This document shows, one piece after another, positions 22,790 to 41,528 of a stretch of 64,000 nt of DNA. A model generated the notes under the pieces. The model did not search any database, was not told the origin of the DNA, and saw only the letters and a program-made list of their open reading frames with translations. The position numbers and the translations under genes were made by a program. Numbering within the stretch: the stretch's first letter is position 1; every line of letters begins with the position of its first letter. Origin of the DNA: Escherichia coli (GTDB taxonomy: Bacteria; Pseudomonadota; Gammaproteobacteria; Enterobacterales; Enterobacteriaceae); the NCBI RefSeq assembly GCF_048403405.1, contig NZ_CP183129.1. The stretch is one strand, 5' to 3'.

Positions 22790-23359
22790 GTGAGCCGATT
22801 CATCCCTGTCGAATTACACCATGCCAGCCGTCTGTTAAATCATGGCCCAACTGTCTTGATCACCAGTTTCGATGAGCAATCCCAGCGGCGTAACATTATG
22901 GCAGCCGCCTGGTCAATGCCGGTGGAGTTTGAACCGCCACGCGTGGCGATTGTGGTAGATAAATCGACATGGACCAGGGAGTTGATTGAACGTAATGGTA
23001 AGTTTGGCATCGTTATCCCGGGTGTTGCAGCAACTAACTGGACGTGGGCGGTGGGAAGTGTGTCGGGGCGTGATGAAGATAAGTTTAATTGCTATGGTAT
23101 TCCGGTTGTGAAAGGTCCGGTGCTTGGTTTGCCGCTGGTCGAGGAAAAATGTCTGGCGTGGATGGAGTGTCGCCTGCTACCTGCAACTTCCGCGCAAGAA
23201 AAATACGATACGCTATTTGGCGAAGTGGTATCTGCAGCGGCAGACGCACGAGTATTTGTCGAAGGCCGCTGGCAGTTTGATGATGACAAACTCAATACGT
23301 TGCATCATTTAGGTGCTGGCACGTTTGTTACCAGCGGCCAGCGTGTTACGGCAGGTTAA
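22790..23359 (+). CDS. yddH: Flavin reductase-like (FMN-binding split-barrel) protein
   Basis: 189 aa, GTG start; recognised as YddH. Confidence 0.85.
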   Translation: MSRFIPVELHHASRLLNHGPTVLITSFDEQSQRRNIMAAAWSMPVEFEPPRVAIVVDKSTWTRELIERNGKFGIVIPGVAATNWTWAVGSVSGRDEDKFNCYGIPVVKGPVLGLPLVEEKCLAWMECRLLPATSAQEKYDTLFGEVVSAAADARVFVEGRWQFDDDKLNTLHHLGAGTFVTSGQRVTAG

Positions 23360-23362
23360 GCA

Positions 23363-23590
23363 TTACATGCTGTAACCGGGTTTCTTTATCAAAGCCTCCA
23401 TTTGGGGCTCGATTTCGGCATCCCAGATAGCTTGCCAAGATTCTGGTTGAATCTGCTGTAGAGAAATGCTTATCGAGCTATCTTTACTGTTCAGATGGCG
23501 AATAATAACGTCGGTAATATCTGCAGCGAGTGCTGCTTTTTGTTGTTCGTCCAGTTCACGCGGAAAACATTTAATGTCTATGTGCGGCAT
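23363..23590 (-). CDS. pptA: Tautomerase (4-oxalocrotonate tautomerase family)
   Basis: 75 aa from [18 protein letters not shown] (N-terminal Pro after Met removal) within ORF 23363..23629. Confidence 0.88.
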
Positions 23591-23895
23591 GATTGTGCTC
23601 CTTTTGAAAGATGTCAGTAAAATTAACACACGTTGTGAATGTCGTGTGTCCGGTAATGCGTTTTTACGGCAATAATGCCTACTTGAAATTGTACATATTT
23701 GTACTACACACTTTTAAATAAAGCGCCAATGAAAACGTTAACTTGCAGAATATATTCTTCGCCAACATGCCATTAAGAAAACATCAAGTTCCCGGCTTGC
23801 CAATTGGTTAACGCCCATTATAGTTATTCTTGCCCTCACTAAAAATTTTCATCCGTAATTACCCCCAATAAAAATCCATTCTGGAGACGCTTAAG

Positions 23896-25872
23896 ATGCA
23901 GCTTAATCATATCGTTAAAAGTCTGCTAATAACGGGATTATTCACCACCAGTTCTTTACCTCTCCTCGCGGCGGAAGCTCCTAAAGACGCCACCGCAGCC
24001 ACGCAACAAGCAAACAATTTACTCTACAACCAGTTGCCGTTTGCCGATAACACTGACTTTACTGATGCCCATAAAGGTTTTATTGCCCCTATCCCTCAAG
24101 ACGTGATTAAGGGCGAACAAGGGAATGTTATCTGGGATCCACAACATTACGCTTTTATCAAAGAAGGCGATAAAGCCCCTGATACGGTGAATCCGAGTTT
24201 ATGGCGTCAGGCGCAACTGATAAATATCAGCGGGTTATTCGAAGTAACTGAAGGTGTCTATCAGATTCGCAATCTCGATCTATCAAATATGACCATCATT
24301 GAAGGCAAAGAGGGTATTACCGTCGTTGATCCCCTTGTTTCAGCAGAAACAGCCAAAGTGGGTATGGATCTCTATTACAAAAATCGCGGCAAAAAACCGG
24401 TAGTGGCGGTTATCTATACACACAGTCATGTCGATCACTACGGTGGTGTTCGTGGCGTAATTGATGAAGCTGACGTTAAATCAGGCAAAGTTAAAATCTA
24501 TGCGCCAGCCGGATTTTTGGAGGAAGCCGTTTCCGAAAACATCATGGCTGGCAATGTTATGAGCCGACGAGCCAGTTATATGTATGGCAACTTATTGAAA
24601 CCTGATGTTAAAGGCCAGGTGGGGGCTGGACTGGGAACGACTACTTCAGCAGGAACAGTCACGTTGATTGCTCCTACTAACTACATCACCAAAACCGGAC
24701 AAAAAGAAACTATTGACGGGTTGACTTATGATTTCCTGATGGCGCCAGGTTCTGAAGCGCCTTCTGAAATGCTGTGGTTTATTGAAGAAAAGAAACTGAT
24801 CGAAACCGCTGAAGATGTCACGCACACCCTTCATAACACCTATTCGCTGCGTGGGGCTAAAATTCGCCAACCGCTGCCGTGGTCAAAATATATTAATGAA
24901 GCTCTCAATTTGTGGGGTGATAAAGCCGAGATTATTCTCGCTCAACATCACTGGCCAACCTGGGGCAACGATAACGTGGTCAAACTGCTTAAAAGCCAGC
25001 GTGATTTGTATCGTTACATCAATGATCAAACTCTGCGCATGGCTAATCAAGGGATGACCCGTGATGAAATTGCCGCAAACTTTAAACTGCCCTCTTCACT
25101 GGCTAACACCTGGGCGAATCGCGGCTATTACGGTTCGGTAAGTCATGACGTGAAAGCAACTTACGTGCTTTATCTCGGCTGGTTTGATGGTAACCCCGCG
25201 ACGCTTGATGAACTGCCGCCAGAAGAAGGCGCAAAAAAATTCGTCGAGTATATGGGCGGTGCTGATGCCATTTTACAGAAAGCCAAACAGGATTATGACC
25301 AGGGTAATTTCCGCTGGGTTGCCCAAGTTGTTAGTAAGGTGGTGTTTGCCGATCCAAACAACCAGGCAGCGAGAGATCTGGAAGCTGATGCGCTTGAGCA
25401 GTTAGGCTATCAGGCTGAATCTGGGCCGTGGCGTAATTTCTATCTCACTGGTGCACAGGAATTGCGTAATGGCGTACAAAAATTACCAACACCAAATACT
25501 GCCAGCCCAGACACCGTGCGTGCGATGACGCCGGAGATGTTCTTTGATTATCTTGCCGTCCATATTAATGGTGAGAAAGCGGCAGATGCCAAAACCGTGT
25601 TGAATTTCGATTTTGGTGAAGATGGCGGCACCTATAAAGTGGAGCTTGAAAATGGTGTTCTCAATCATACCGCTGGTGTAGAGGCTTCGGATGCTGATGC
25701 CACTATCACTCTGTCTCGTGATGTATTGAACAAAATTGTACTGAAAGAAGAGACGCTGAAAGAAGCCACGGCCAAAGGAGATGTCAAAATTACTGGCAAT
25801 GAGGAAAAACTCAACGAGCTGTTAGGTTATATGGATAATTTTGAATTTTGGTTCAATATAGTGACACCATAA
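23896..25872 (+). CDS. Periplasmic alkyl/aryl-sulfatase-like protein (metallo-beta-lactamase fold, SdsA1/YjcS family)
   Basis: 658 aa; signal peptide MQLNHIVKSLLITGLFTTSSLPLLAA; MBL motif YTHSHVDHYGG; C-terminal SCP2-like region; not at this position in K-12 as I recall it. Confidence 0.8.
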   Translation: MQLNHIVKSLLITGLFTTSSLPLLAAEAPKDATAATQQANNLLYNQLPFADNTDFTDAHKGFIAPIPQDVIKGEQGNVIWDPQHYAFIKEGDKAPDTVNPSLWRQAQLINISGLFEVTEGVYQIRNLDLSNMTIIEGKEGITVVDPLVSAETAKVGMDLYYKNRGKKPVVAVIYTHSHVDHYGGVRGVIDEADVKSGKVKIYAPAGFLEEAVSENIMAGNVMSRRASYMYGNLLKPDVKGQVGAGLGTTTSAGTVTLIAPTNYITKTGQKETIDGLTYDFLMAPGSEAPSEMLWFIEEKKLIETAEDVTHTLHNTYSLRGAKIRQPLPWSKYINEALNLWGDKAEIILAQHHWPTWGNDNVVKLLKSQRDLYRYINDQTLRMANQGMTRDEIAANFKLPSSLANTWANRGYYGSVSHDVKATYVLYLGWFDGNPATLDELPPEEGAKKFVEYMGGADAILQKAKQDYDQGNFRWVAQVVSKVVFADPNNQAARDLEADALEQLGYQAESGPWRNFYLTGAQELRNGVQKLPTPNTASPDTVRAMTPEMFFDYLAVHINGEKAADAKTVLNFDFGEDGGTYKVELENGVLNHTAGVEASDADATITLSRDVLNKIVLKEETLKEATAKGDVKITGNEEKLNELLGYMDNFEFWFNIVTP

Positions 25873-25886
25873 ATTTACTGCATACC

Positions 25887-25909
25887 GGGCAGGTATCCTG
25901 CCCTTTTTT
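25887..25909 (+). terminator. Rho-independent terminator after the sulfatase gene
   Basis: gggcagg-tatc-ctgccc followed by TTTTTT, 15 nt after stop. Confidence 0.8.
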
Positions 25910-25918
25910 GGTTAAAAA

Positions 25919-27016
25919 ATGGCTGAACGAAGAAAAACGCATCACTCATGGAAAACCCGCCGCGATATGGTTATTCGCGGCATGACGATTAGTTTGCCAT
26001 GGTTTGCTTTTATCAATGTCAGTTTTGCATTGATAATTTTGCTGCGCCGTGTTCTGTTTAATGACCTTACTCCACCCTGGTTAAATGAAAAAAGCCTTAT
26101 ACATTCTATTGATATATCTGCAACGGGTATTCTGCTGATTTGCAGTGGTTTACTACTCATCCCTCGGCAAAAAACATTACCTATCCAGGTGCTATTAGTT
26201 GCCCTGAGCCTGCTATGGTCATGGTGTAGTTATCACTTTATTGCGTACTGGACGCTGCAGTTTGCTTATCCACTATGTGTATTATTAATGCTTAGTGGCG
26301 TTGTCGCACTTTATTTCCATACCCCATCATTGCTCGCATTTGTCATTCCCTTATGGTTCACCACTCCAATAGCGAGTCTTATGCTTAATCAACAGATCAA
26401 TATTCATTTTGCTGTTGTATGGTGTATTTTTTCACTGGCGCTATATGGTGGGCGACTCATTTTGTTACGTTGGTTTGAAGAAGCATGGGTACAAAACAGT
26501 TATAACAACCAGTTAATTAATCGCCTTGATGCATTAGCACATCGTGATCCTTTAACTGGGATAGCAAACCGACGTGCAATGAACAGTATCTTACACGACG
26601 CGATGGATAACGGCGGGTCATTTGCTCTTATTATGCTGGATGTCGATTTTTTTAAACGTTACAACGACACTTACGGGCATCCTGCTGGGGATCGTTGTCT
26701 AATACAAGTTGCCGACGCTCTACAGCGTTCAACTCGCCAGTCGGAGGATGTTGTTGTCCGTTATGGTGGCGAAGAGTTTGCCATCATACTTTTTAATGCA
26801 ACATTGCCGGAAGCAGAGACGGTAGCAGCCAGAGTGAAGCAAGAACTTAAACTGGCAGCTATCCCACATCAGGCATCTGCTGTTAATGCATTTGTTACGG
26901 TTAGTCAGGGGATTACCTGTTCTGCTCCCGCAAAAACGGCTGAACAAATTATTTCAGATGCCGACGCTGCGTTATACCGGGCGAAAGAAAGTGGGCGAAA
27001 TCGATGGGCTTTATAA
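25919..27016 (+). CDS. Membrane-anchored GGDEF diguanylate cyclase (multi-TM N-terminal sensor-like domain)
   Basis: 365 aa; about 6 predicted TM helices then GGDEF domain with RYGGEEF active-site motif and D-x-LTG; start codon uncertain (ATG at 25919 lies 10 nt after a terminator U-tract with no SD). Confidence 0.8.
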   Translation: MAERRKTHHSWKTRRDMVIRGMTISLPWFAFINVSFALIILLRRVLFNDLTPPWLNEKSLIHSIDISATGILLICSGLLLIPRQKTLPIQVLLVALSLLWSWCSYHFIAYWTLQFAYPLCVLLMLSGVVALYFHTPSLLAFVIPLWFTTPIASLMLNQQINIHFAVVWCIFSLALYGGRLILLRWFEEAWVQNSYNNQLINRLDALAHRDPLTGIANRRAMNSILHDAMDNGGSFALIMLDVDFFKRYNDTYGHPAGDRCLIQVADALQRSTRQSEDVVVRYGGEEFAIILFNATLPEAETVAARVKQELKLAAIPHQASAVNAFVTVSQGITCSAPAKTAEQIISDADAALYRAKESGRNRWAL

Positions 27017-27089
27017 GCATTAGGGGACTGGACAGATTACGTCTCTCCTCGCTTAACAAGGGCTGACGGAGGGTAATAATTGTCTATAG

Positions 27090-27641
27090 CTATCTTCTTA
27101 GCGATGTCTTTCTGGTATCACATTGGATCGGTGCAATTATTTTTCCTTTAATACCCATTATGTTAAGAAATTCAGAAACAGCTGTAATCTCATTGTTTTT
27201 TTCATTCGTCTTGATCTTACAAGGAATCTGACTGTGCATTATTGAGAACACACTAATAACGTGAATCGCTCCCTTGCGACGACTCTTGTCATAAGAGTAC
27301 CGGAGCGTTTTTCCATCAATTGCAATGACGTCTTTATCATCTGAAGAATGGCAGTCAAGCATCCAGTTAATAAAGCACTCATGAAATTTTTCAGGACTGA
27401 TACAGGATACAACTCTGGCAATGGTATCGTGAACAGGAATACCATTATCAAAATCACCATATTGCTTCAAAAAATCGAGATGTGTTTCCCCAAAATCCTC
27501 TATATCTTCCCAGCCTTCTGCACCCGAAATAACGGCACAAATAGTCAACAGTAGAATATCCGATAATTTATGTTCCACTTTCCAGGCTTGTCTGTAATCG
27601 GGGATAATAGAAATATGTCCCATCAATTTTTTAAGTTCCAT
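27090..27641 (-). pseudogene. ISAs1-family (H-repeat, YhhI/YdcC-like) transposase, 3'-truncated fragment
   Basis: N-terminal about 166 aa match the H-rpt protein ([12 protein letters not shown]...[11 protein letters not shown]...IDGKTLR) then the frame diverges and stops; full-length homologs are about 378 aa. Confidence 0.8.
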
Positions 27642-27789
27642 TTTGTTCTCCTTAATTATGTAAGGAGTATTTGATCATGTATACGCAATAAAAAACAGCT
27701 TCAGGTAATGAGGAATATCTCAATTGTTAAACATAAAATGCGAATTGTCTAGTACAAAAAAGCAGCGTTACGTGATCTTTCCGTGGATC

Positions 27790-27912
27790 GTCAAATTGTT
27801 CGAGAGAAAATACCAACATGATGGATTTTACTGTAAAAGTAATGTCGTAGTTTAAAAACTCATCATCCGGTAAAGCCTTGTGGGGCGTGGGCTTTCATAC
27901 TTTTACCCTGAT
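27790..27912 (-). repeat. ISAs1/H-rpt element upstream end (copy 1 of a conserved roughly 120-bp block)
   Basis: tcaaattgttcgagagaaaataccaacatgatgg...cttgtggggcgtgggctttcat...ccctgat is about 85 percent identical to 34529..34650. Confidence 0.65.
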
Positions 27913-28226
27913 GTCTGCTATACGCCGGACACCCTTTACGTAGCATTCGGAATTCACCCGTAAATTTATCACGGCGGTATCACGAAACCTCCGGTTCTGA
28001 TGCCGCTTAGGACTAACGACACGTCAACACAGGTTCGGGTTTATTCATTTCACTGTATCTCATATAATCTGAGCACTCCCCCTGCGCTCGCTACTATGAC
28101 TCTTTACCACAGCAACCGGGGTTGTTTGGGATCGGCTTTCAACAGCAGATCCCGGTGGCTATTGCAAGTAAGTCTACTTTCCACATCAGTGTTACTGACA
28201 CAGAAAATAATGAGTTATGATCCTTG

Positions 28227-28712
28227 TCATATTTTTAATATAGCCCCATGAGCTATAGGATCAAAACCTTCTAACCATGAGGTGTTTTTATCGAATAATG
28301 CACCTGTTATATTTATATCGCCATATCTATCACATAATAAATTAGCGCCACATAAGTCAGCACCAGAAAAATTTGAATCTTTAACGTCTGCATTGCAAAA
28401 GGTTGAATTAGTTAATATAGCACCCTCAAAGTTTGCACCTATTGACCTTGAATTACTAAAGTCACTTCCAGTGAAATCTGAGTTATTAAGAATAGCGTTC
28501 ATCAGAGCCGCATTGCGAAAGACAGCATTTCTAGTTGATGTATGTTGAATCATTACATTTCTTAAATGGGAATTTTCAAATTTCGCCCCATCAAGACAAT
28601 AACCATTGAGGATGGCACGATGTAGATCCATCCCGCTAAAATCATATCCAGCAAGAGTGGTACTATCTATATCAAGAAATTTATTGGTTATTAAAAACGC
28701 GATTCTTATCAT
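28227..28712 (-). CDS. Pentapeptide-repeat protein; putative cognate immunity protein of the adjacent Rhs toxin
   Basis: 161 aa; tandem A(D/N)(L/F)xx pentapeptides ([11 protein letters not shown]..., [33 protein letters not shown]); start ATG overlaps Rhs stop (ATGA) so translationally coupled; AT-rich. Confidence 0.8.
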
Positions 28713-31700
28713 CTATTCCCCCAATCATCTAACTCCGGAAAAATTTGGCTAAACGGATATAGTGGTGCCGATAATGGACGCGTACCTGGCCGCTCAGGAG
28801 GAAGTTTATCACATAACAGACCCGCAACCATCCTGTGATTACCATTAACAATCACATTCCCATCCATATCAACCGGTGGTGCTCCACTACCATCTTCCAG
28901 CATTTGTACGTAGTGAGCTACTACGGGTACTGAGACTTTTTGTTGTACTGTCAACAAGGGACTGTTGGCCACAACCATCCTGATGTTTTCAGGTGTCGTA
29001 GGTAAACATTTAGTCTTCTCTTGACTAAAGGTATCATCCCACAATTTTGTTAAACCCATCACTGCCTGTTGTCTGTATTTATCCATGGGGTCAGCAATCA
29101 ACCAAGATGGACCTGACTGCTCTATGGAATCTTCTCCGGAGAGACCCAACGGATCTATCTTAGTAGTTGGATTCAATGGATACTGATACAGGTTCCATGC
29201 ACCTCTTAGCCCAATGGGATCCTGGGTGATATACCGCCCCTGCAACGGGTCATAGTACCGGTTGCGGTTATAGTACAGCCCCGACTCCTCATCATACTGC
29301 TGCCCCGGCAGACGGTACGGCTGTTGCAGTTGCTGCGCGCTGGTTTCGCCCAGCAGGTTTCCCCACTCGTCATACTCCCCCTGCCACGCCGTTTCCCCTT
29401 CCGGGCTGATGAGCGCCTGCGGCAGCCCCCGGTGGTCGCAGTGGTAAAGATGAAGTGTCCTCTCCGGGATGTATTCCGCCTCCATCTGGTTTTTCATCTG
29501 TTCCGCCGTCAGCCCGCACTGCTGAAGCCATGCCTCACTCTCCGCACTCACCGCACCCGCGCGCAGTTCCCGCTCCAGCCTCCCCAGCATCACCGACAGC
29601 TCCGCCGGTAGCGTCACCCCCGTGTCCTCCTGCAACACCTCCGCCAGACTCCGGTGCCGCGCCTTCGCCTGTTCACCATTCTCTGTTTCGATTCTGATGA
29701 GCGGCGTGAAGCTCCCCGGCTGGTATACCGTCTGGATACGCGTGGTGCCGGTCTGTACCGTCGTCAGCCTGTCACCGTCCCACCCGTACCAGGTCTCCTC
29801 CGGTTTACGCGACAGCGACATCCACCCCGTCAGGTCACGCTCCCGCCGCCACACCCGTTTCCCCGTCCGGCGGCCCAGCGGGTCATAGAGGTAGCGGCTC
29901 TCCACCTGTGGCTCGCCGTGCTGTATCCGCGTGTAGAACACCAGGCGGTGCTGGCTGTCGTAATGGTAGTGGTGCGTCCGCTCGTCGTGCATCCGTATCA
30001 CCCCTTCCGGGATACGGTCCGTCTTCTCCGCCAGCCTGCCGTATTCATCGTAGCGGTAGACATAGTGCGCATCTTCCGTGATGCGGTTATCCGGCCACGC
30101 CGTGAAGGTGCTGTCCGGGTGCAGTTCCGGGTCCGGCAGCCGGTTTCCTGCCGGGTCCGTCGCATACGGGATATCGATATCCAGGTTCGCCGCCGTGGTG
30201 TGAACGCCCGTCAGTCTTCCCGTGTCGCTGTAACGGTACTTCCGGCTCTCCTGCGGGCCGCTGATGCGCACCAGTTGCCCGTTATCGTTCCACGTATACT
30301 CACGGTCAAGCTGCGGAAGGTTCAGGTGCCTGCTCCGGAGCTGCCCTGTGAGGGTGTACGCCGTGGCCTGTTCGTACCCCGCTGTACTGCCCGCCCCGCC
30401 GAAGCTGCGGGCCGTCTCACGGTGCAGCCGGTCCCGCGTGTACTCGACCAGCGGCGTTCCGCCCAGCTTCATCCCCGCAAGATAACCGCTGCCATACGTC
30501 AGCCACTCCACCGGCGGCAGACCGTCCGGCTCCTGACGGGTCGCCAGCCCCTGTTCGCTGTAGACGTGCCTCGTCTCATGCTCCCACAGCATCTCCCCCG
30601 TCTCCTGGTTCTCCACCGTCTGCCGTTCGCCCGTCAGGCGGCCTTTATCGTCATAGCCGTAGTGGACCGCCACACGGTGGCCTTCGCTCAGGTGGCTGAT
30701 TTCTGTCAGCCAGCCGTGGTCGTCATACTGCCACTGCTCCGCCGGGTCGCCGTTCACCGTCCGGTGCGTGATGCGCCCGGCGTCATCGTAGTACCACTGC
30801 GTGACCTGCCCCTCATCCTCGCTGCGGATGAGCTGCCCTGTGGCGCTGTACCGGTAACGCTGTGTCCTGCCGTCAAAGCCGCGCTGCTCCGTCAGCCTGT
30901 CCACCGGGTCATACCGGAACGTGGACTGGCTGCCGTTCTCGTTGGTCAGCACGGTGATGCGCCCGGCGGCGTCATACTCCATGCTGCGCGTCAGTCCGCC
31001 CTGCGTGGTGCTGACGGCCTTTCCCCACGCATCATACTGTGTCTCACTCCGGCTGCCGTTCGGGGCAATGATAGCGGTGAGGTCGCCTGCGGCGCTGTAC
31101 TCATAACGGGTTTCACGTCCCTGCGCATCCTTCTGACTGACCAGTTGACCACGCGGGTTATAACTGCTGTAAGTGCTGATGCCTTCCTCCCGGTGAACCG
31201 CCGTCCTCTGACCGTACCGGTCGTATTCATACCGCGTCGTGTACCCTGAACAGTCCGTAAATGCCTGAAGCTGACCGTACCGGTTTCGCGTTATTCTCCG
31301 CCTCACCCCGGTTCCGTCTTCCACCGCACAGGGCAGGCCACTGCGGGAAGAATCATAAAACCAGCGCGTAATGTTACCGTTGCGCGAGACCTCTTCCGCC
31401 AGCCTGCCCTGACGGTCATATTTCCGGCTGCGGCGCAGCCCGTCCGGGTACGTCACTGACGTCAGTTGCAACTGGTTGTTGTAACCATACCGTACCGTCC
31501 TGCCGTCCGGCAGTATCACTGAAGTCAGCTTTCCCGACGCCATATGCAGCCGGTACTCCGTCCGCCGTCCCGCCGCATCCGTCTGCGCCTTCAGCCTCCC
31601 CGCCTCATCATACTCGCTGCGGGTGATGCTCCCGTCCCCATACTCCTTCTTCACCACCCGCTTCAGGCCGCCCTCGCCCTCCGTGTACAGCACCTCCCGC

Positions 31701-32920
31701 CGGTTCAGGCTGTCCGTGATGGTCACGCGGTCCTGCCCGTACTCAAAGCGGTAGTCCAGCCCCTCCGGGTTGACCTGCTCCGTCACCCGACCGGTATCAT
31801 CATACCGGTAGCGGCTCTCCGGCCTCCCCGCATAATGGTGCGCCACCATCCGCCCGGCGTGCTCCGCATCATAAGTAAACCCGCGCACCTGCGTCCCGCT
31901 GCGGTCATACACCGCCCGCAGTTCTCCGCTGGCCGTGTACGTGTAGCGCGCCAGCGGCGCAGTCGGCAGTTCATCCGGGTATGCCGGGTCGTGTGTCAGC
32001 CATACCGCCTCCAGCCGGATACCGTTATCGGCACCGTACTCTGTACCGGTGGGCAGCGTGTCGGGGAAAAACTGAGAAGAGGAAACAGAACGGGGACTGG
32101 CCGGAGAAGATAAAGAAGACTCGCGCTGTTTACGGAAGGCTTTCGCCCGCTGCGCCTGTGTGGTCAGCGCCAGATGAAAACGGCGGCCCGCGCCGTCCGT
32201 CACCCCCGTCACCGCGCCCGCCGCTTCCCCCTCTGCCGCCCGGTGGAAGGCCAGCGTCCGCCCGAAGCCGTCCACCACGCCCGTCAGCACCCGGTATGCG
32301 GGCGGCTCCGGCGGCAGCACCTCGTCCGCCTCCGGCACCCGCTCCGGCCAGCCGAGTATCCACCACGGCCCCTGAAGGCTGTTTGTCGCCAGGTACACAT
32401 GCGGGCTTAAGCGGAGACTCTCCGGCAGCACCTGCCAGAGCGCGCTTAGCGGCTGCGAACTGTGCTGCTCCGCCACCCCGCCCCTTGCCAGCCAGAACGA
32501 CTCGCTGCGGCTGTAGCTTATCTCGCCGGGAAACAGCGGCTCAAAGTGAATGCTCCTGCCGCCACTGTCGTTGAGTATCAGTTCCCGCTCATGAACCTGT
32601 AAGCGGATATCGAAGGGCGCTTTCCAGCCGGGACCAAACACCCCCACCGGCGCGGGTGTCCTGGTCCGGTAGCTGCTGTAGGCGCGGGAAAGAATAAACG
32701 GCAACGGGCCGGGCAGCGCAAGATCCGTCTCGCCCGGCAGCACCTTCGCACCCAGTAGCGGGTTCACCGGGTTACCCTTCTGCTCCTCCACCGGGCTGTT
32801 GGGACACACCGAGCAGGCCACTCCCGTCGGCGCACCTATCAGCACCCCCGCTGAACCCTGCACAATATCCAGTCCCTTGCGGGTCATATCGCCCTGTCGC
32901 GCCGCCGGTTTTCCGCTCAT
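28709..32920 (-). CDS. Rhs-family polymorphic toxin (PAAR-containing N-terminus, YD-repeat shell, DPLGL-delimited variable C-terminal toxin tip)
   Basis: 1403 aa; N-terminal [13 protein letters not shown]...[12 protein letters not shown]; many YD repeats ([18 protein letters not shown]...); conserved PxxxxDPLGL just before the last 143 aa; GC-rich core, AT-rich tip. Confidence 0.93.
28712..29140 (-). other. Rhs C-terminal variable toxin domain (last 143 aa), family not recognised
   Basis: Sequence after DPLGL: [10 protein letters not shown]...VVAHYVQM...[17 protein letters not shown]...ELDDWGNR; base composition drops relative to the Rhs core. Confidence 0.6.
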
Positions 32921-40789: not shown

Positions 40790-40811
40790 GCCCGGTATTT
40801 GCCGGGCATTT
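40790..40811 (+). terminator. Stem-loop terminator after yncD, immediately abutted by IS200
   Basis: gcccgg-tattt-gccgggc then ATTTAA, 11 nt after the yncD stop. Confidence 0.5.
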
Positions 40812-40813
40812 AA

Positions 40814-41528
40814 TTGTGCACAGAAAACCCCCAGCTAGGCTGGGGGTTCCGGAAAGCTTTCAGCTTTAAGCCAGTTATTAAAACCCCTTTTGATTTGTTA
40901 AAACACCTTGCGGTCTGGCAACTGCAAGTGTCAAACAAGAAATCAAAAGGGGGTCCCAATGGGGAACGAAAAGAGCTTAGCGCACACCCGATGGAACTGT
41001 AAATATCACATAGTTTTTGCGCCAAAATACCGAAGACAGGTGTTCTACAGAGAGAAGCGTAGAGCAATAGGCAGTATTTTGAGAAAGCTGTGTGAGTGGA
41101 AAAGTGTACGGATTCTGGAAGCTGAATGCTGTGCAGATCATATCCATATGCTTGTGGAGATCCCGCCCAAAATGAGCGTATCCGGCTTTATGGGATATCT
41201 GAAAGGGAAAAGCAGTCTGATGCTTTACGAGCAGTTTGGTGATTTGAAATTCAAATACAGGAACAGGGAGTTCTGGTGCAGAGGGTACTACGTCGATACG
41301 GTGGGTAAGAACACGGCGAAGATACAGGATTACATAAAGCACCAGCTTGAAGAGGATAAAATGGGAGAGCAGTTATCGATTCCCTATCCGGGCAGCCCGT
41401 TTACGGGCCGTAAGTAACGAAGTTGGATGCAAATGTCAGATCGTGTGCGCCTGTTAGGGCGCGGCTGGTAAGAGAGCCTTATAGGCGCATTTGAAAAACC
41501 TCCGGCTATGCCGGAGGATATTTATTTA
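40814..41528 (+). mobile_element. IS200-like insertion sequence, copy B (inverted relative to copy A)
   Basis: Near-identical to the reverse complement of 1680..2394 with a few substitutions; boundaries +/-3 bp. Confidence 0.85.
40959..41417 (+). CDS. tnpA: IS200/IS605 family Y1 transposase TnpA
   Basis: 152 aa from MGNEKSLAHTRWNCKYHIVFAPKYRR; differs from copy A at a few residues (e.g. D3N, LAFYG to QVFYR). Confidence 0.9.
   Translation: MGNEKSLAHTRWNCKYHIVFAPKYRRQVFYREKRRAIGSILRKLCEWKSVRILEAECCADHIHMLVEIPPKMSVSGFMGYLKGKSSLMLYEQFGDLKFKYRNREFWCRGYYVDTVGKNTAKIQDYIKHQLEEDKMGEQLSIPYPGSPFTGRK

Follow-up and report, generated by a model that had tools for sequence, protein, structure and literature searches.

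In the rpsU-dnaG-rpoD operon of E. coli, unequal expression of the genes is set by an intra-operon terminator located between rpsU and dnaG. With regard to translation, a published rule holds that start codons lacking a Shine-Dalgarno (SD) sequence are found where the RNA is locally unfolded, whereas internal AUGs lie in structured RNA (Scharff et al. 2011, PMC3121790). Among diguanylate cyclases, DgcX is an accessory, highly expressed E. coli enzyme with a MASE4 domain, whose gene is found beside lambdoid prophages at attB or other sites (PMC4287979, PMC10459773). [quoted passage not shown]

Here, we analyzed the junction between an alkyl/aryl sulfatase gene and the diguanylate cyclase gene that follows it in E. 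coli chromosomal DNA. The whole stretch that was analyzed, 64 kb in length, is referred to below as the window. The reading that we favor, and consider reasonably probable, is that the two genes form an operon in which an internal terminator acts as an attenuator, with an SD-independent cyclase start at position 25919 and low cyclase expression. The features of the locus are listed in Table 1.

Table 1. Features of the sulfatase-cyclase locus, numbered from the first nucleotide of the window.
Feature	Position	Strand	Basis
Gene order: narW-narI-yddE-nhoA-yddH-pptA, then sulfatase (+), cyclase (+), truncated ISAs1 transposase, Rhs element			
Candidate σ70 promoter TTGCCA-16 nt-TATAGT, predicted transcription start ~23831	23797..23824	+	PWM scan
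Alkyl/aryl sulfatase gene, 658 aa	23896..25872	+	Pfam; RefSeq WP_001176573.1
Terminator hairpin GGGCAGG-TAT-CCTGCCC, 7 bp, 6 G-C, 3-nt loop	25887..25903	+	Sequence, terminator scan
T6 tract, directly abutting the stem	25904..25909	+	Sequence
Spacer GGTTAAAAA, A-rich, without Shine-Dalgarno, holding in-frame TAA 25913-15	25910..25918	+	Sequence
Proposed N-terminal extension MAERRKTHHSWKTRRD, 16 codons, absent from RefSeq annotation	25919..25966	+	Shuffle test, conservation, pN/pS, AF2
Internal ATG (Met17), RefSeq/PGAP start of the 349-aa form WP_000236740.1	25967..25969	+	RefSeq annotation
MASE5-GGDEF diguanylate cyclase, long form of 365 aa, proposed CDS	25919..27016	+	Pfam and comparative evidence

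The sulfatase-cyclase gene pair

The product of the upstream gene begins with a signal-peptide-like sequence and contains the Lactamase_B, Alkyl_sulf_dimr, and Alkyl_sulf_C domains of the type III alkyl sulfatase architecture, all three above their Pfam cut-offs; its gene ends with a TAA codon at 25870-72. The downstream product matched MASE5 at 150.8 bits (cut-off of 25.2) and GGDEF at 165.1 bits (cut-off of 23.8), and its active-site motif, RYGGEEF, is intact and invariant in the alignment. By its domains and this motif, the downstream gene is that of a diguanylate cyclase, with c-di-GMP synthesis as the predicted activity. The identities first assigned from the letters alone, a sulfatase upstream and a cyclase downstream, agree with the Pfam results. 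The pN/pS value of the cyclase gene body was ~0.24-0.26 by the Nei-Gojobori method; at ~0.24, the gene is not decaying and is under purifying selection. No equivalog model for this cyclase was present in NCBIfam, and literature searches, including those on E. coli “DgcY” and on MASE5, returned neither a published study of it nor an experimentally mapped transcription or translation start. Further accessory E. coli cyclases were reportedly named by Povolotsky and Hengge in 2016.

The locus is accessory: of 5426 complete E. coli genomes, 443 have it, nearly always with at least 99% identity. Its carriers include E. coli MS 69-1 and isolates of ST405, ST38, and ST69. Hundreds of MASE5-GGDEF homologs are found in Enterobacter, Salmonella, Hafnia, Leclercia, and Pantoea. 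For their recovery, exact-protein look-ups were far more productive than a profile search of contigs with full-length alignment, which yielded ~6 useful loci amid generic GGDEF matches. The sulfatase and cyclase genes have the same orientation in Leclercia, Lelliottia, and the Escherichia group, whereas the Salmonella pair is divergent; in other relatives, yddH is followed by the cyclase gene in the same neighborhood. Sequence identity is much higher for the sulfatase than for the cyclase (98% versus 81% in the ortholog L083, and 87% versus 51% in Leclercia and Lelliottia), and in L083 most of the drop falls within the membrane region, MASE5. A ~100-nt relic of the sulfatase 3' end is retained beside pptA in about 160 E. 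coli genomes without the pair, which indicates that most lineages lost the pair by deletion rather than that a few gained it recently.

Terminator and promoter-like sites at the junction

The sequence-only reading had pointed to a GC-rich hairpin with a U6 run at the end of the sulfatase gene. This feature can be read directly in the sequence, and the hairpin was the top site of the region in the terminator scan. The hairpin starts 14 nt downstream of the sulfatase stop codon and, judging by known ribosome footprints, would be clear of a terminating ribosome. In isolation, its calculated free energy was −12.1 kcal/mol, and in a 340-nt context its pairing probability was 0.99. Hairpins of equal quality (a perfect 7-bp stem with at least five G-C pairs, followed by at least five T in six positions) occur at ~9 distinct sites in the window versus 0.07 expected in composition-matched shuffles; thus, the hairpin is a real feature and not a product of chance. 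A search of Rfam with positions 23300-27800 returned no known RNA family, riboswitch, or leader at E ≤ 1.

The hairpin was compared with its counterparts in five orthologous loci (L003, L083, L084, L085, and L094), whose cyclases are 77-92% identical to the one studied here. The stem is invariant in five of the six sequences, with TAT, TTT, CTT, or TTC in the loop, and the L084 copy carries one G-to-A mismatch. The T-rich tract on the 3' side of the stem reads TTTTTT, TTTTCT, or TTTTTG in the orthologs, and an ATG codon is located 9-14 nt past it. In Lelliottia, Leclercia, and the L092 locus, the same junction contains hairpins unrelated to the E. coli one, and the Leclercia hairpin is not followed by a T-tract. 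By its stem, U-run, position, and conserved structure, the E. coli element is an intrinsic (Rho-independent) terminator, with termination itself predicted.

The highest-scoring promoter-like site on the + strand of the entire window (12.9 bits) is located upstream of the sulfatase gene. No σ70-like site was detected between the terminator and either 25919 or 25967 in consensus and PWM scans; a weak promoter, or one that is not σ70-dependent, would escape scans of this kind. The best local sites score ~8 bits, and their predicted transcription start points, at 25869-25882, fall just upstream of the hairpin. As many as 96 + strand sites of the window score at least as high. Leaderless mRNA starting at A25919 was also considered and rejected: both scans were empty there, and no −10 element is suitably placed, positions −12 to −7 reading TTTGGT.

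Start codon and expression of the cyclase gene

Because of the in-frame TAA in the spacer, the first in-frame ATG of the cyclase ORF (25919-21), located 9 nt past the T6 tract, is the sole possible start upstream of two internal ATGs, 25967 (MVIRG) and 25982 (MTISL). The sequence-only reading had also noticed that only GGTTAAAAA separates T6 from this ATG and that a ribosome-binding site is missing, and both the sequence and the calculated anti-SD duplex energies bear this out. The best duplexes had energies of −2.2 kcal/mol at 25919, −3.3 kcal/mol at 25967 (with a spacing of 13 nt), and −2.2 kcal/mol at 25982. Spacers of the orthologs (GGTAAAAAA, GGTTATAAGAA, and GGTTATAAACAAAA) are likewise A-rich and lack an SD, and no conserved SD was found at the equivalents of 25919 or 25967 in 14 lineages. 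A conserved TGG (Trp codon) was considered as part of an SD for Met17 and discarded, as its distance from the ATG is 13-15 nt and the codon behaves as if constrained at the level of the protein. SD-independent initiation appears to be the norm in this family.

The candidate starts differ in their calculated accessibility. In the read-through transcript, the cost of opening the −15 to +15 segment was 5.8 kcal/mol at 25919, 16.6 kcal/mol at 25967, and 15.6 kcal/mol at 25982, and the same order was repeated in four orthologs. Position 25919 is surrounded by unstructured, A/U-rich RNA, and the ATG at 25967 occupies the 9-nt loop of a 7-bp GC-rich stem (25959-65/25975-81). The latter stem is not kept in the orthologs L083-L085 and is a local property and not a conserved element. 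With no SD pairing and a local minimum of structure, 25919 fits structure-determined SD-independent initiation, initiation itself being a prediction. An SD-independent start at unstructured A/U-rich RNA was not among the alternatives listed in the sequence-only reading.

Several comparative results bear on translation of the 16 codons that precede Met17. In 13 of 14 lineages, an in-frame ATG is located 14-25 codons before the invariant Met-Val pair, with no stop codon in between; the open extensions span 16-23 codons. When the upstream 75 nt of each lineage were shuffled, such an open ATG arose with a probability of ~0.04-0.07 per lineage, and no lineage (0/14) had one in either of the two other frames, which served as controls; as the lineages are phylogenetically related, their probabilities cannot simply be multiplied. 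In Leclercia, the one exception, an in-frame TTG is present at −18, overlapping the end of the sulfatase gene, and its clade-mates begin with ATG at this place (MLRRK...), so that Leclercia L090 is no proof of a Met17 start. Homologs that are 48-64% identical to the E. coli protein have extensions of 16-24 residues, in which a Trp at −6 from Met17 and a basic R/K-R-K cluster are conserved (examples of extension ends, with a slash before Met17, are SWKTRRD/MV, TWPTRHA/MV, and VWQDHKD/MV). Among close orthologs, the extensions show a 6-nt indel that preserves the frame, as well as synonymous changes (CGA/AGA, CGC/CGT, TCA/TCG, and GAT/GAC). The pooled pN/pS value was 0.47 in the extension versus 0.26 in the gene body (Nei-Gojobori), and the differences by codon position numbered 87/58/111. 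Such a substitution pattern is characteristic of a tail that is translated but under loose constraint.

Position 17 is Met in 107 of 113 homologs. The remaining six have Phe (P0032, P0034, and P0036), Leu (P0015), or Ile (P0043 and P0067), and therefore cannot start at this position. Since every replacement is hydrophobic, a structural role of Met17 fits the data. In the AlphaFold2 model (mean pLDDT of 83), helix 1 begins at residue 14, upstream of Met17, and residues 1-9 are disordered. We consider it quite likely that translation starts primarily at 25919 and that 16 residues are missing from the RefSeq model.

One alternative is the annotated start. Were RefSeq right, the protein would start at Met17 and contain 349 aa, and positions 25910-25966 would be an untranslated leader conserved for a function at the RNA level. 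PGAP places the start at 25967, and in public collections the 349-aa form is found on at least 1000 contigs, while the 365-aa form, produced by other pipelines, is found on 151. Met17-Val18 is invariant in a 27-sequence alignment, and MV is present in 105 of 113 homologs; near-invariance of this pair would also be expected of a start codon, and counts against the long form, as do the weaker constraint on the extension than on the rest of the protein and the predicted disorder of its first 9 residues. In addition, AGGA or GAGGA directly precedes the equivalent of the 25967 ATG in some orthologs, and the MASE5 domain matched by Pfam does not begin until residue 25. However, a distance of 0-1 nt from the ATG is too short for these SD-like motifs to work, and they are not conserved, and six homologs have a non-Met residue at position 17. 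The upstream ORF and its ATG are kept far beyond chance, and in that frame only, and the extension accumulates substitutions with a codon-position pattern and a pN/pS below 1. The 25967 ATG, enclosed in its stem-loop, is ~11 kcal/mol costlier to open than 25919, and no promoter-like site is placed so as to make such a leader. On balance, we regard a start at Met17 as unlikely. Of the two internal starts put forward in the sequence-only reading, MVIRG coincides with the RefSeq call, and MTISL was ruled out, as the corresponding position is Leu in most homologs; among the alternatives of that reading, an internal start has the least comparative support. Use of both the upstream ATG and Met17, which would yield 365-aa and 349-aa isoforms from one mRNA, differing by a basic cytoplasmic tail, would agree with strong conservation of both codons and with the lack of an SD at either, which leaves no strong preference by that criterion. 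Yet some homologs have residues that cannot initiate in place of Met17, and the Met17 codon is structurally sequestered in the E. coli sequence; we judge this arrangement improbable.

A further possibility concerns transcription. The cyclase gene could have its own promoter at or just upstream of the hairpin, or be leaderless from A25919, and so be expressed independently of the sulfatase gene, in which case the hairpin would mainly stabilize mRNA, at the 3' end of the sulfatase message or the 5' end of the cyclase message. Two weak sites just upstream of the hairpin, TTGGTT-16-TAAATT (predicted start ~25882) and TGGATA-19-TATAGT (~25869), could serve this purpose, TATAAA directly precedes the hairpin in some orthologs, and the lack of a T-tract in Leclercia also counts in favor of this view. 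But scores of ~8 bits are matched or exceeded at the 96 sites mentioned above, and both weak sites overlap coding sequence and the stop codon, which accounts for their conservation. The E. coli window has CATACC in place of the TATAAA of the orthologs, transcripts from such sites must still cross the hairpin and T6, and a start at 25919 lacks a −10 element. We therefore hold an independent cyclase promoter to be very unlikely. Read-through of the terminator, which the sequence-only reading had offered as one explanation, is the best-supported reading, given the conserved hairpin and T-tract, the strong promoter-like site upstream, and the lack of one downstream, with read-through itself predicted. 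Its other suggestion, poor expression of the cyclase gene, is plausible and compatible with read-through.

According to the operon model, the sulfatase and cyclase genes would constitute one transcription unit, with its promoter ahead of the sulfatase gene. Most transcripts would end past the sulfatase gene, at the conserved terminator (25887-25909). Read-through transcripts would carry the cyclase message, so that the level of the cyclase would be low relative to that of the sulfatase. Translation would begin at the first ATG, 25919, and yield a 365-aa protein; initiation would proceed without an SD, by virtue of the unstructured A/U-rich start just downstream of a stable hairpin. Met17 would be a conserved hydrophobic residue inside the first helix and not the primary start. 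In this model, we infer the efficiencies of termination and read-through, the true transcription start, and the true initiation codon. A 7-bp stem followed by T6 may terminate efficiently and leave very little read-through; terminator efficiency is not reliably predictable from sequence. A low supply of cyclase mRNA would agree with general knowledge on the abundance of diguanylate cyclases.

Comparison with known systems

The evidence suggests that 16 N-terminal residues are missing from WP_000236740.1 and, with it, from several hundred E. coli annotations. Public annotation pipelines are split between 349 and 365 aa, and we advise that the ATG at 25919 be used when the cyclase is cloned or tagged. 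The junction illustrates how a signaling enzyme can stay low within an operon.

Speculatively, gene order points to a functional link between the sulfatase and the cyclase. The pair may be a functional module, in which the sulfatase would be periplasmic and the cyclase would sense alkyl-sulfate detergents or their fatty-alcohol products in the membrane and, through c-di-GMP, promote biofilm formation or aggregation, while the terminator and the SD-less start would fix a low cyclase-to-sulfatase ratio. We consider this idea a long shot. We know of no ligand of MASE5, and the linkage of the two genes across genera provides a starting hypothesis for MASE5 ligands. If the module were real, it would supply the first candidate signal for MASE5 and an enterobacterial counterpart of the SDS-triggered SiaA/D response.

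The resemblance to SiaA/D is conceptual, in that alkyl-sulfate detergent biology is tied to a diguanylate cyclase in both cases; homology, however, is limited to the GGDEF domain, and the NCBIfam SiaD model scores 153.8 bits versus a cut-off of 290 bits. As with DgcX, the enzyme studied here is an accessory membrane-bound GGDEF cyclase present in a minority of E. coli strains. Identity with DgcX was ruled out, as the sensory domain is MASE5 and not MASE4, and the locus lies between pptA and an Rhs element and is not prophage-adjacent. The protein belongs with the MASE5-GGDEF cyclases of Enterobacteriaceae (PF17178 and PF00990), with scores for both domains well in excess of their gathering thresholds and an intact GGEEF motif; it stands apart as the product of an accessory E. 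coli gene without an NCBIfam equivalog.

With respect to translation, the cyclase gene is similar to the SD-independent genes of Scharff et al. 2011 (PMC3121790), in that an SD is absent, the start is the least structured region and A/U-rich, and internal AUGs are structured. In contrast to those genes, a terminator hairpin of great stability flanks the unstructured segment of the cyclase gene on the 5' side, and initiation here is predicted.

All elements of the junction are of known kinds (an intrinsic terminator, intra-operon attenuation, SD-independent initiation, and a MASE5-GGDEF cyclase), and their layout is conserved and ordinary. The rpsU-dnaG junction shares with it a hairpin and U-tract between co-oriented genes with no promoter afterwards, and a downstream gene whose translation initiation region is poor and whose product is of low abundance, as predicted for the cyclase. 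Unlike in rpsU-dnaG, the cyclase start codon is located 9 nt past the U-tract, so that the U-tract is itself part of the translation initiation region. This compactness, with the terminator U-tract and an A-rich spacer making up the entire initiation region of the next gene, is the only slightly unusual feature of the locus.

The cyclase start codon and the gene junction

Public annotations of the identical cyclase gene (25919-27016) conflict, since both a 349-aa and a 365-aa form have been deposited. The 349-aa form, which is that of PGAP/RefSeq, is found on at least 1000 contigs, while the 365-aa form comes from other pipelines (e.g., BCM32574.1) and is found on 151. The RefSeq ATG, at 25967, is located in the loop of a GC-rich stem (see table). 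In comparison locus L003, the stem is retained by a G-U wobble resulting from a synonymous CGC to CGT change; in comparison loci L083-L085, it is not conserved.

A different junction is found in the Leclercia-like clade, where the N-terminal extension of the cyclase overlaps the final sulfatase codons (positions 1447-1503 of L090, from Leclercia adecarboxylata; cyclase homologs P0032-P0056). The cyclase ORF starts there at a TTG or ATG codon located 5' of the sulfatase stop. The hairpin at this junction lacks a T-tract and falls within the coding sequence of the extension. The arrangement suggests that translational coupling operates here instead of an intercistronic terminator.

Features of the cyclase locus and its surroundings
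Feature	Window position	Strand	Description
Stem around the RefSeq ATG	25959-25981		7 bp, GCCGCGA/TCGCGGC; 9-nt loop
IS200/IS605-family element, inverted copies	1680-2401 and 40807-41528		722 nt, 96% identical
Sulfatase 3'-end segment matched by the relic	25751-25849		relic at L095 3501-3599; 85-91% identical
ISAs1 transposase remnant	27090-27641	-	truncated and frameshifted; directly after the cyclase gene
Pentapeptide-repeat protein gene	28227-28712	-	161 aa; overlaps the end of the Rhs gene
Rhs core protein gene	28709-32920	-	1403 aa

Distribution and probable loss of the sulfatase-cyclase pair

The alkyl sulfatase and MASE5-GGDEF cyclase genes (window 23896-27016 and compared loci) are kept as a pair in Escherichia, Leclercia, Lelliottia, and Salmonella, being co-oriented in L083, L084, L090, and L093 and divergent in L089. 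The sulfatase is much more conserved, with amino-acid identity in Leclercia and Lelliottia reaching 87%, versus 51% for the cyclase. The two proteins may be functionally linked, for example, in the sensing of alkyl-sulfate detergents.

About 160 complete E. coli genomes with neither gene retain a ~100-nt remnant of the sulfatase 3' end, located between pptA and a SymE toxin/Rhs region. Because of this relic, the pair appears to have been ancestral at the locus and deleted in most lineages. The patchy distribution of the cyclase locus may be explained by its rearrangement-prone context, which includes the ISAs1 remnant and the Rhs gene (27090-32920). The Rhs core and pentapeptide-repeat proteins presumably constitute an Rhs toxin with an immunity protein. 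The IS200/IS605-family copies, one of which sits between yddM and fdnI, are 38 kb apart, and each is flanked by terminator-like hairpins.

Divergence within the cyclase

Nucleotide identity between L083 and the window is ~95% along the sulfatase gene, falls to 66-79% in the MASE5 transmembrane region (26000-26400), and returns to ~95% at 26400-26600 and 26800-27000. This mosaic pattern suggests that the sensor domain has either been replaced by recombination or is evolving fast.

Upstream of the GGEEF motif, residues ~270-287 of the cyclase (window 26700-26760) read RQSEDVVVRYGGEEF. The canonical RxxD inhibitory site, expected five residues before GGEEF, aligns imperfectly, giving either RxxxD or a 6-residue spacing. 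Since RxxD does not align cleanly, product-feedback inhibition of the cyclase may differ from that of PleD-type cyclases.
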